A DNA stretch of 64,000 bases. Origin: Escherichia coli (GTDB lineage: Bacteria > Pseudomonadota > Gammaproteobacteria > Enterobacterales > Enterobacteriaceae). The position numbers and the translations under genes are program-made. Positions 12,700-15,363 of this stretch are shown piece by piece (position 1 is the stretch's first letter; every line of letters begins with the position of its first letter). The stretch is from the NCBI RefSeq assembly GCF_002854065.1, contig NZ_CP024147.1, one strand, 5' to 3'. The notes under the pieces were generated by a model that saw only the letters and a list, made by a program, of their open reading frames with translations, did not search any database and was not told where the DNA came from.

Positions 12700-15363
12700 A
12701 TGAAACTGAAAAAACTCCCCGGGTTTAGTTTAGGACTTATTGCTCTGGCGGTGGGTAATGCATATGCAACACAATTGTTGGATGATTATAGTATAATTTC
12801 CTATATAACCGATGAAGAATCGCCGATTCAAATCAAAGATAATACTTTGAAAAGTAATGAAGAATATCTAACCACTGAAGACGAAAGCCATGCTGTGAAA
12901 GTGGATGACGGTGTAACTGGATATATAAATAATGCCAGTGTGATGACTAGTGGTGATGGATCTTATGGTATTTCTGTTGATAGTCAAAACAAAGTATTAT
13001 ATATAAGCGATAGCGATATTAAGACCTCTGGAAGCGTATCTAACAAAGAAAATAACCAAGATGTTAATGGAGGGATAACAGCCAGCGCAGTAGTCAGTGA
13101 ATTTGGTGGCACCATCGTTATGAATGGTGATAATTTAGTCGAGACGGGGGGGGCATATTCAGCGGGACTTTTAAGTCAGGTTAATGATTCTGGAAATGTG
13201 GAAAATAACACTCGTCTTGAAACCACAGATAAAACGATCATTGTTACCTCTGGGGAAAATGCAGTAGGTGTTCTTGCATGTTCAAGACCTGGAGAGTCTC
13301 GAACATGTGTCGATGCTGTAGATGATGAAGTTAGTGATTCTAACAGTTACGAAGTTATTAGCCGTGCTGATTTAAAAATGAATGGTGGTTCCATAACAAC
13401 TAATGGCATTAATAGCTATGGTGCTTATGCTAATGGGAAAAAAGCATATATTAATTTAGATTATGTGGCACTTGAAACTGTGGCTGATGGAAGTTATGCA
13501 GTTGCTATTCGACAAGGTAACATTGATATAAAAAATAGTTCTATTACAACAACAGGCACTAAAGCCCCCATTGCAAAAATATACAATGGTGGAGAGTTAT
13601 TTTTTTCCAATGTCACCGCGGTATCAGTAAAAGATAAAGGAATATCAATTGATGCATCAAATATCGATTCTCATGCCAAAATAGCACTATCAAGTGTTGA
13701 ACTTTCAAGTGCTTTGGATAGTATTGATGTTAACAAAACTACAACGAATTTAAGCATCCTTAATCGAAGTATTATCACGCCTGGTAATAATATTCTGGTT
13801 AATAATACTGGGGGTGACTTAAACATAATTTCGTCCAACTCTACTCTAAATGGAGCGACTAAACTCGTTAGCGGCACAACCACGCTGAAGCTTTCAGAAA
13901 ACACAATCTGGAATATGAAAGATGACTCCGTTGTTACCCATCTGACTAATTCAGACAGTATTATCAATCTTTCGTATGATGATGGTCAAACATTTACCCA
14001 GGGAAAAACGTTAACCGTAAAAGGTAATTATGTCGGTAATAATGGTCAGCTTAATATCCGCACTGTATTAGGTGATGATAAATCAGCTACGGATAGACTT
14101 ATTGTGGAGGGTAATACTTCGGGTTCAACTACCGTCTATGTGAAAAATGCTGGAGGAAGCGGCGCGGCCACGCTAAATGGGATCGAACTCATAACTGTGA
14201 ATGGCGATGAATCTCCAGCAGATGCCTTCAGACAAGGTGATGCAAGGATTGCAGCTGGAGCTTTCGAATATCAACTAAAACAACAAGGCAAAAACTGGTA
14301 TTTGACAAGTTATCAGTCAGTGAATGAGGAGGATAACAGCTCAGAGGGAAATTCAGAATCAACAGAAACGCCCACCCCCGTCCTGCGCCCCGAAGCTGGA
14401 AGTTACGTCGCCAACCTGGCAGCCGCTAACACTCTTTTTGTTATGCGTCTGAATGACCGTGCAGGTGAAACGCGCTACATCGATCCTGTAACTGAACAGG
14501 AGCGTTCAAGCCGACTTTGGCTACGTCAAATTGGCGGGCATAATGCCTGGCGTGACAGCAACGGACAGTTGAGAACGACCTCGCATCGCTACGTCTCGCA
14601 GTTAGGGGCCGATCTGTTAACCGGTGGTTTTACCGACAGTGACAGTTGGCGTTTGGGAGTGATGGCTGGTTATGCCCGCGACTACAACTCAACTCATTCC
14701 AGCGTGTCGGATTATCGTTCGAAAGGGAGTGTCAGAGGCTATAGCGCAGGGCTGTATGCCACCTGGTTTGCCGATGACATCAGTAAAAAAGGCGCATACA
14801 TTGACGCCTGGGCGCAATATAGCTGGTTTAAAAACTCGGTGAAAGGGGATGAATTAGCCTATGAATCCTATAGCGCGAAAGGCGCAACCGTCTCGCTGGA
14901 AGCGGGTTACGGCTTTGCCCTGAATAAATCCTTTGGTCTGGAAGCGGCGAAATATACGTGGATCTTCCAGCCACAGGCACAGGCTATCTGGATGGGCGTC
15001 GATCATAATGCGCACACCGAAGCCAATGGCTCACGTATTGAGAATGACGCAAATAACAACATCCAGACCCGACTTGGTTTCCGCACTTTTATTCGTACTC
15101 AGGAGAAAAACAGCGGTCCGCACGGTGACGACTTTGAACCTTTTGTTGAAATGAACTGGATCCATAACAGTAAAGATTTTGCTGTCTCAATGAACGGCGT
15201 GAAAGTCGAACAAGACGGGGCGCGTAATTTGGGGGAAATTAAACTTGGCGTAAATGGCAATCTGAATCCGGCGGCCAGCGTCTGGGGTAATGTGGGCGTG
15301 CAGCTGGGTGATAATGGCTACAATGACACCGCAGTGATGGTGGGCCTGAAATATAAGTTCTGA
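12700..15363 (+). CDS. ycgH: autotransporter (type Va secreted protein), apparently intact, at the ycgH position
   Basis: 887-aa uninterrupted ORF: signal peptide MKLKKLPGFSLGLIALAVGNAYA, repetitive passenger domain, C-terminal beta-barrel ending ...GLKYKF. Confidence 0.8.
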   Translation: MKLKKLPGFSLGLIALAVGNAYATQLLDDYSIISYITDEESPIQIKDNTLKSNEEYLTTEDESHAVKVDDGVTGYINNASVMTSGDGSYGISVDSQNKVLYISDSDIKTSGSVSNKENNQDVNGGITASAVVSEFGGTIVMNGDNLVETGGAYSAGLLSQVNDSGNVENNTRLETTDKTIIVTSGENAVGVLACSRPGESRTCVDAVDDEVSDSNSYEVISRADLKMNGGSITTNGINSYGAYANGKKAYINLDYVALETVADGSYAVAIRQGNIDIKNSSITTTGTKAPIAKIYNGGELFFSNVTAVSVKDKGISIDASNIDSHAKIALSSVELSSALDSIDVNKTTTNLSILNRSIITPGNNILVNNTGGDLNIISSNSTLNGATKLVSGTTTLKLSENTIWNMKDDSVVTHLTNSDSIINLSYDDGQTFTQGKTLTVKGNYVGNNGQLNIRTVLGDDKSATDRLIVEGNTSGSTTVYVKNAGGSGAATLNGIELITVNGDESPADAFRQGDARIAAGAFEYQLKQQGKNWYLTSYQSVNEEDNSSEGNSESTETPTPVLRPEAGSYVANLAAANTLFVMRLNDRAGETRYIDPVTEQERSSRLWLRQIGGHNAWRDSNGQLRTTSHRYVSQLGADLLTGGFTDSDSWRLGVMAGYARDYNSTHSSVSDYRSKGSVRGYSAGLYATWFADDISKKGAYIDAWAQYSWFKNSVKGDELAYESYSAKGATVSLEAGYGFALNKSFGLEAAKYTWIFQPQAQAIWMGVDHNAHTEANGSRIENDANNNIQTRLGFRTFIRTQEKNSGPHGDDFEPFVEMNWIHNSKDFAVSMNGVKVEQDGARNLGEIKLGVNGNLNPAASVWGNVGVQLGDNGYNDTAVMVGLKYKF

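Follow-up and report, generated by a model that had tools for sequence, protein, structure and literature searches.

The window analysed here is a stretch of 64,000 nucleotides from Escherichia coli (contig NZ_CP024147.1 of RefSeq assembly GCF_002854065.1). On its + strand, at 12700..15363, lies an open reading frame (ORF) of 887 codons that opens with ATG and, in the ORF listing of the window, runs without an internal stop. Upstream are the genes for a 507-aa CSS-motif/EAL protein (pdeG/ycgG) and for ymgF; downstream, in convergent orientation, come ymgD and ymgG, then a short remnant of an autotransporter barrel, and minE. This neighbourhood, with the order pdeG-ymgF-ycgH-ymgD, assigns the ORF to the ycgH locus. 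In fact, the product is identical to the RefSeq protein WP_158302263.1, "autotransporter YcgH" (recorded on 8 contigs), and the name thus fits both the site between ymgF and ymgD and the protein itself. We read the gene, with a probability of about 85%, as an intact allele of a classical type Va autotransporter, monomeric and of the AIDA-I type, whose passenger would be displayed at the cell surface and whose production would be gated by a run of eight guanines (G8) inside the coding sequence.

Domain layout and predicted fold of YcgH

All parts of a type Va autotransporter are found in the sequence or in its model: a signal peptide, a beta-helical passenger, an autochaperone and linker, and a PF03797 barrel with an aromatic end. 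Codons 1-23 (12700..12768; MKLKKLPGFSLGLIALAVGNAYA, then TQ) display, by inspection without a dedicated predictor, a basic n-region (MKLKK), a 13-residue hydrophobic core and the sequence GNAYA (A-x-A) before Thr24, which is the layout of a putative Sec signal peptide. The passenger head follows (codons 24-409, 12769..13926), rich in Ser, Asn, Thr and Ile and predicted by AlphaFold2 and Foldseek to form a beta-helix. It leads into an AC_1 autochaperone domain (codons 410-526, 13927..14277; PF18883, E 2.5e-29), which is overlapped by a Pertactin Pfam match at residues 431-536 (E 5.2e-9). A linker alpha-helix (codons 564-578, 14389..14433) is predicted to sit within the barrel pore, as judged from the modelled secondary structure and the alignment with the AIDA-I structure 4mee. 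The beta-barrel translocator itself occupies codons 605-887 plus the stop codon (14512..15363; PF03797, E 5.7e-41 over residues 606-865). The chain finishes in KYKF, the aromatic end usual for outer-membrane barrels, and matches TIGR01414 with an E-value of 1.2e-111. The ORF listing, Pfam and inspection thus bear out what a first-pass annotation of the window had described, an uninterrupted frame of 887 codons with signal peptide, passenger and terminal barrel. Domain prediction on the passenger, which that annotation had proposed as a check, returned no Pfam family for residues 24-409 at E<=0.01 and a modelled beta-helix.

The AlphaFold2 model, built on 26 sequences, has a pLDDT of 84.8 and a pTM of 0.75. 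In it, the beta-solenoid runs unbroken between about residues 43 and 536 (pLDDT mostly above 90), and is followed by the helix at 564-578 and the barrel at 605-886. Sequence comparison pairs residues 434-887 with the crystallised AIDA-I transport unit (4mee, E 7.7e-77) and residues 363-556 with the autochaperone region of IcsA (3ml3, E 1.8e-19). Foldseek agrees: the C-terminal unit superposes on 4mee with a TM-score of 0.95 and an rmsd of 2.0 A at 34% identity, the autochaperone superposes on 3ml3 with a TM-score of 0.74 and an rmsd of 1.9, and the passenger finds pertactin (1dab, E 2.2e-9) together with IcsA and Hap.

The transport unit of YcgH, with its autochaperone, linker and barrel, is therefore like that of AIDA-I, and the likeness ends there. 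The YcgH passenger is much shorter, is unrelated in sequence and holds no AIDA-type repeat family according to Pfam; the gene also has no heptosyltransferase gene next to it, its neighbours being ymgF and ymgD. The NCBIfam AIDA-I model (NF033176), whose cut-off is 1200 bits, gives YcgH a score of 284, its alignment being limited to residues 350-887. Thus, a place for YcgH among the AIDA-I adhesins proper, or among the self-associating autotransporters, was rejected. Membership in the MisL (428 bits, cut-off 1297), ShdA (192, cut-off 2249), YfaL/EhaC (198, cut-off 1459) and ECSE_1600 (445, cut-off 2335) families was rejected likewise, all scores lying far below the cut-offs. In fact, no NCBIfam equivalog model scores above its curated cut-off and all of them align to the C-terminal unit only, so the YcgH name given by the annotation pipeline PGAP presumably rests on direct similarity. 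YcgH is an AIDA-I-type translocator with a passenger of its own, outside the named adhesin families.

What could this passenger do? An exhaustive HMMER search of 1.8e9 protein representatives found only 65 homologues of the passenger head at E<=1e-3, which makes it a narrow family. Most are fragments of YcgH, as were most hits of a word-based homolog search; the rest are unnamed autotransporters, at 25-40% identity, from Providencia, Enterobacter, Edwardsiella, Burkholderia/Stenotrophomonas and Achromobacter. All these relatives are uncharacterised, and therefore they have no function to transfer to YcgH. Pertactin and IcsA/VirG share with YcgH the right-handed beta-helix and its C-terminal autochaperone cap (1dab, 5ke1, 3ml3), at 13-25% identity outside the autochaperone; evidence for the RGD-type function of pertactin or the actin-nucleating function of IcsA was not found in YcgH. 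Homology suggests that the passenger is most likely an adhesin or aggregation factor. Since passengers of autotransporters serve a wide range of functions, one could propose a secreted enzyme or toxin instead, such as a SPATE-like protease, a lipase or an esterase. Yet at E<=0.01 Pfam finds no Peptidase_S6, lipase or other catalytic domain, the model is a plain beta-helix without a globular head, and the structural neighbours are helices of the pertactin, IcsA and Hap type. Moreover, the transport unit is of the AIDA-I type, and the SPATE barrels of EspP and Hbp are only 17% identical to it. An enzyme or toxin is thus very unlikely, and a SPATE or enzymatic passenger was rejected.

The passenger head also carries the only two cysteines of the protein, Cys194 (13279-13281) and Cys203 (13306-13308), nine residues apart in ACSRPGESRTC. 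The pair is kept in a diverged allele from O157:H7 (ACASPGSARAC), and it probably forms a small disulphide loop on the passenger.

Disrupted and intact alleles across Escherichia coli

In the K-12 chromosome, the same locus and protein are found in another state. PGAP annotates K-12 ycgH as a pseudogene ("frameshifted; internal stop"), in line with the first-pass annotation, and the alignment that it had suggested located the lesions. Between the window and K-12, we counted 66 substitutions and three structural differences, and the G run is interrupted in K-12. Codon 512 of the window (14233..14235), CAA for Gln, reads TAA in K-12 (where it is codon 507), which places a stop inside the autochaperone and upstream of the whole barrel. 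In codon 863, the T at 15288 is deleted; this 1-bp deletion falls in the penultimate barrel strand (modelled strand 859-870) and, in the AlphaFold2 model, leaves the barrel without its last two strands and its terminal Phe. The third difference is an in-frame deletion of the 15 bp at 13051..13065 (codons 118-122, NNQDV). This segment belongs to a loop of low model confidence (residues 117-123), and is therefore probably a tolerated, harmless in-frame indel. With a nonsense codon before the barrel and a 1-bp deletion that wrecks the last strands, K-12 cannot make the YcgH protein. K-12 ycgH is thus neither intact nor identical to that of the window, and the window ORF hides no frameshift.

The K-12 stop is no laboratory accident. 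An exact 80-mer centred on codon 512 occurs with TAA in 1493 and with CAA in 686 of the 2238 complete E. coli genomes in which this segment is present. People, poultry, pigs and river water are among the sources of the TAA isolates, and the K-12 lesion is therefore a widespread natural allele. More broadly, 5110 of 5426 complete E. coli genomes match the region, and 2136 of them cover at least 80% of it, with a YcgH-type passenger. In an evenly spaced sample of genomes ranked by their match to the region, about 42% were of the YcgH type, about 20% had a B2-type locus with large internal deletions (strain 536, for example), and about 35% combined the same signal peptide and C-terminal half with another passenger, a class that PGAP names the "ECIAI39_1904 family autotransporter adhesin".

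Intact copies are easily found as well. PGAP annotates an intact YcgH in E28, RM14516, Santai, Combat11I9, SCU-316, 100181 and A30, and the intact protein is encoded on at least 1000 contigs for the E28 type and on 585 for the SCU-316 type. The window gene is 97-99% identical in DNA to other intact alleles (RefSeq examples are WP_158302263.1 and WP_001522908.1). An intact YcgH is a minority state, far from rare; an intact ycgH set against the K-12 pseudogene is a correct observation, already catalogued, and amounts to ordinary strain variation.

Some observations on individual strains may be added. Strain 100181 has a 9-bp in-frame insertion at 12806, near the mature N-terminus, which yields an intact protein of 890 aa. 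Beside the deleted ycgH of strain 536 (B2), pdeG, which encodes a c-di-GMP phosphodiesterase, is also annotated as truncated, its N-terminus being absent. The gene is also a frequent insertion target, with IS1A, IS1B, IS3 and IS903B in various genomes.

A second autotransporter gene once adjoined ycgH. At 16579-17022 (+), an ORF of 147 aa matches only the last 100 or so positions of the barrel (PF03797 profile positions 152-254) and corresponds to a ycgI-type remnant; ycgI is also a pseudogene in K-12. In E28 and O157:H7, a long "YpjA/EhaD-like" autotransporter gene stands after ymgJ, at the position of the remnant. Therefore, the window lineage has lost most of this second autotransporter.

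Length variation of the G run

The G8 run (13146..13153, codons 149-152, ACG GGG GGG GCA) is the only G/C run of seven or more in the 64 kb. It encodes T-G-G-A within a conserved TxG turn of the solenoid and, as a hypermutable tract, stands here in its in-frame (ON) state. Other lineages have an interrupted run, namely GGGTGGGG in K-12, GAGGGGGG in E28 and GGGGGGAG in 100181. With 8 or 11 guanines the frame is kept, and with 7, 9 or 10 translation ends after about 157-161 residues.

CUWW06, the complete genome nearest to the window, matches it at 100% identity apart from a G9 in place of G8 and an IS1B insertion, which corresponds to window positions ~13154-13190. Among complete genomes with flanks of the window type, 30 have G8 (exact 80-mer), six have G7 and one has G9, and every G7 or G9 copy examined is flagged "frameshifted". 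The G7 alleles of KV7 and LH50-c lie 0-1 substitutions (none for KV7) from the intact G8 allele of SCU-316. Those of PE164, F2_81 and E105 are identical to each other and differ from KV7 by 48 substitutions, and therefore arose independently. Another G9 is found in EC1515, and in PKF4 the E28-type tract is lengthened by one G. Altogether, tract-length changes among complete genomes trace back to at least five independent events.

Because long-read assembly is liable to homopolymer miscalls, we sought the variants in draft and short-read public assemblies. The 721-aa downstream ORF that a frameshift leaves behind occurs in 132 blocks of a public-assembly index, and we retrieved frameshifted loci from one ENA metagenome assembly, from NCBI drafts and from Logan assemblies of SRA runs. 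Alleles only 0-2 substitutions away from the window had G9 (loci L020, L021 and L023), G10 (L022 and L024) or G11 (L033, from Logan), the last one encoding an in-frame protein of 888 aa with one extra Gly. Eight loci that encode the exact window protein all had G8. One haplotype of single-nucleotide polymorphisms (SNPs) carries G9, G10 and G11, and a second (Y35H) carries G9 and G10; the G8 form of the Y35H haplotype exists too (P0009). Over the 3.85 kb compared in 14 loci, indels are confined to the tract. On the N-terminal haplotype of the window, the contig counts are 90 for G9, 15 for G10, 3 for G7, 8 for G8 (full-length exact) and 2 for G11, the ON counts being underestimates because they need identity over 887 residues against about 150 for the others. 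The tract thus changes length at a far higher pace than point substitutions build up; the changes recur, take steps of up to three bases, and both break and restore the frame.

Could the uninterrupted ORF of the window itself be a sequencing or assembly error that conceals a G9? G9 is the commonest length on this haplotype and is what the closest complete genome has. Yet 14 independent contigs from NCBI and Logan samples encode the exact 887-aa protein, all of them with G8, and 30 complete genomes contain the exact G8 80-mer. Such an error is most improbable, and we rejected an artefactual origin of the ORF.

The absence of other indels in the 3.85 kb of the 14 loci served as our control for homopolymer instability. 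A T9 run at 17231-17239 had been considered for this purpose and was dropped because it is interrupted (TTTTGTTTT) in K-12 and probably in most genomes. This run, in the intergenic region between the ycgI remnant and minE, is uninterrupted in the window and in CUWW06, the one complete genome with a 100% match to the 81-mer around it.

Selection, possible switching and the proposed role of YcgH

Does the cell make use of the product? To look at selection along the gene we applied the Nei-Gojobori method to eight alleles of 2664 bp, seven intact ones and that of Res13, which has a single internal stop. In the passenger head (codons 24-400), pN/pS is 1.00, with 56 polymorphic codons that change the amino acid and 14 that are synonymous only. 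In the autochaperone and linker (codons 401-600), pN/pS falls to 0.04, the corresponding numbers being 4 and 21, and it is also 0.04 in the barrel (codons 601-887), with 4 and 16. These last two regions have a substantial synonymous diversity (pS 0.03-0.06), and purifying selection acts strongly on the translocator half. This is unlike a decaying gene, and YcgH was therefore made and used while the alleles diverged. The passenger value of about 1 may mean either that the solenoid surface is weakly constrained or that an exposed antigen is under diversifying selection.

The ECIAI39_1904 family adds to this picture. Its members, as in O157:H7, occupy the same site between ymgF and ymgD with the same signal peptide and architecture, and their C-terminal half is 90.7% identical to that of YcgH; the passenger head, however, has diverged beyond megablast detection, to about 38-42% protein identity, and has no G run at the equivalent site (TTGDYS). 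In the O157:H7 allele, the signal peptide is shared at 98.5% identity and DNA homology to the window stops at 12767. One breakpoint of this second passenger class coincides exactly with the signal-peptide cleavage site (12767/12768), and the other lies close to where the autochaperone begins (~14026). Such recombination-like breakpoints look like a cassette-style allelic replacement of the passenger (12768-14025), and the existence of a second, diverged class supports diversifying selection without proving it. Copies of this class are often split or stopped, as in O157:H7, which has an internal stop.

Upstream of ycgH, the 400-bp spacer to ymgF (12301..12699, +) is AT-rich, is about 95% identical to K-12 and is the presumed promoter region. 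Its GC content (0.33-0.39) equals that of the passenger head (0.33-0.39) and compares with 0.46-0.53 in the translocator half. Genomic SELEX data for K-12 (PMC3946193) list both an RpoD promoter and H-NS binding for this spacer, and ycgH is among the peaks of a sigma-S ChIP-seq study. The listed hexamers, TTGACA-19-TATAAG (PMC3946193), have no match in the window or in the spacer of K-12, and a generic scan for sigma-70 consensus sites did no better than shuffled sequences (12 found against 7.7 +/- 3.0), so that no promoter was assigned. Silencing by H-NS is plausible because the 5' half of the gene is AT-rich. On the other side of the gene, between the convergent ycgH and ymgD, a GC-rich hairpin (15380..15406, -) with an 11-pair stem and then a T-run resembles a terminator for the ymgD strand.

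Several observations weigh against an intact, displayed and G-gated YcgH. The locus is prone to decay: the K-12 stop is present in 67% of the genomes that carry this part of the gene, insertions of IS1, IS3 and IS903B, and also of IS1A, interrupt it elsewhere, and further lesions are the stop of Res13, the large deletions of B2 strains and the stop in the O157:H7 alternative allele. The passenger value near 1 could simply mean weak constraint and, with H-NS listed upstream in K-12, the gene may be silent under laboratory conditions. In the open-access literature, we found no experiment on the expression or function of YcgH, which is weak evidence; papers mention ycgH as a K-12 pseudogene (PMC4447067, PMC12492688) or as the neutral integration site that metabolic engineers use. 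Finally, OFF lengths outnumber ON lengths on the window haplotype, which fits one-way decay at a hot spot, and a neutral hot spot in an often dispensable gene would give much the same tract picture.

On the strength of such points, one could argue that ycgH is intact here but cryptic: not yet hit, silenced by H-NS, contributing nothing and on its way to the decay seen in K-12, B2 and O157:H7. Most genomes do carry some lesion, and CUWW06, otherwise identical to the window, has both the G9 and the IS1B insertion; the passenger pN/pS of 1.0 and the H-NS listing point the same way. This explanation nevertheless has to account for a pN/pS of 0.04 in the autochaperone, linker and barrel, which at this level of synonymous diversity requires long-term selection on the product, for the abundance of intact alleles of the E28 and SCU-316 types, and for G11 alleles that restore the frame. 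We consider a cryptic gene possible, on balance unlikely. The interpretation of the first-pass annotation, that the strain retains a functional autotransporter, is thus supported: all parts needed for secretion are present and the translocator is constrained, and that it functions is what we infer. A single slip in the G run would turn the gene OFF.

The G run raises a separate question, namely whether its changes serve the cell. Slipped-strand switching at repeats is typical of Neisseria, Haemophilus, Campylobacter and Bordetella. In ycgH, a long homopolymer sits in the 5' part of the coding sequence, and in-frame and out-of-frame lengths recur on near-identical alleles; such a polymorphism is the signature that a slipped-strand contingency locus leaves in a population. 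We tentatively propose that ycgH with an uninterrupted run may be a genuine contingency locus, a reversible surface switch that is ON at G8 and G11 and OFF at G7, G9 and G10. In that case, the passenger head would owe its fast evolution to the pressure that immunity or phages put on an exposed antigen. For a neutral hot spot, in part perhaps an assembly artefact, with a single origin of G9 in a successful clone and with G10 and G11 as further slips in a dead gene, we would give a little less than even odds. Such a hot spot would agree with the excess of G9 over G8 on the window haplotype, and long-read miscalls could explain some of the complete genomes. Moreover, E. coli coding regions generally avoid simple repeats, according to a comparative study (PMC3315296), and a 2025 review cites E. 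coli only for switches by invertible promoters and methylation (PMC11868660). Our search of the open-access literature for poly-G switches in E. coli adhesins found reports from other genera only, which is weak evidence of novelty. Against neutrality or artefact, the variants are present in Illumina-derived Logan contigs, in NCBI drafts and in a metagenome assembly; lengths differ by two and three bases as well as by one; changes recur on at least two SNP haplotypes of the window lineage and on three other backgrounds; no other indel occurs in the 14 loci; and three assemblies from different countries share one G7 allele.

Known systems offer two points of comparison. In Bordetella pertussis, tcfA and bapC had the most variable homopolymeric tracts of one study (PMC1891110). 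Like ycgH, these autotransporter genes have a coding-region G/C homopolymer whose length changes shift the frame; unlike ycgH, they belong to another genus, encode unrelated passengers and vary within populations, whereas the variation of ycgH is seen between isolates of a species in which repeat-mediated switching is not an established mechanism. A switch of YcgH would operate by frameshifting within the ORF. This differs from Antigen 43 (flu), the classical phase-variable autotransporter of the AIDA-I type in E. coli, known for its ON/OFF heterogeneity, in which the switch is epigenetic and acts at the promoter via Dam methylation and OxyR.

How would an intact YcgH work? We envision that the 23-residue signal peptide would direct passage through Sec and that the C-terminal domain would then be inserted in the outer membrane as a barrel by the Bam machinery, with the linker helix in its pore. 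The passenger, about 540 residues long, would be threaded outward through this barrel, and its folding, nucleated at the autochaperone, would proceed upward into a right-handed beta-helix on the cell surface, where it could serve as an adhesin or aggregation factor. Export, surface display, the adhesin role, the transcription state and switching within a clone are the steps that we infer.

Thus, ycgH joins the many genes that are pseudogenes in K-12 and intact in wild E. coli, and its intact protein is already named in databases. K-12 under-represents the surface proteome of the species, and a "neutral" integration site in one strain is a real gene in others. The hypermutable G run and the fast-evolving passenger head merit modest follow-up, and scoring the presence or absence of ycgH from assemblies requires a look at tract length. 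If true, a reversible G-run switch would explain why ycgH is so frequently annotated as frameshifted, the tract would provide a simple natural marker for within-host microevolution, and E. coli would gain a case of repeat-mediated phase variation of a chromosomal adhesin-like protein.

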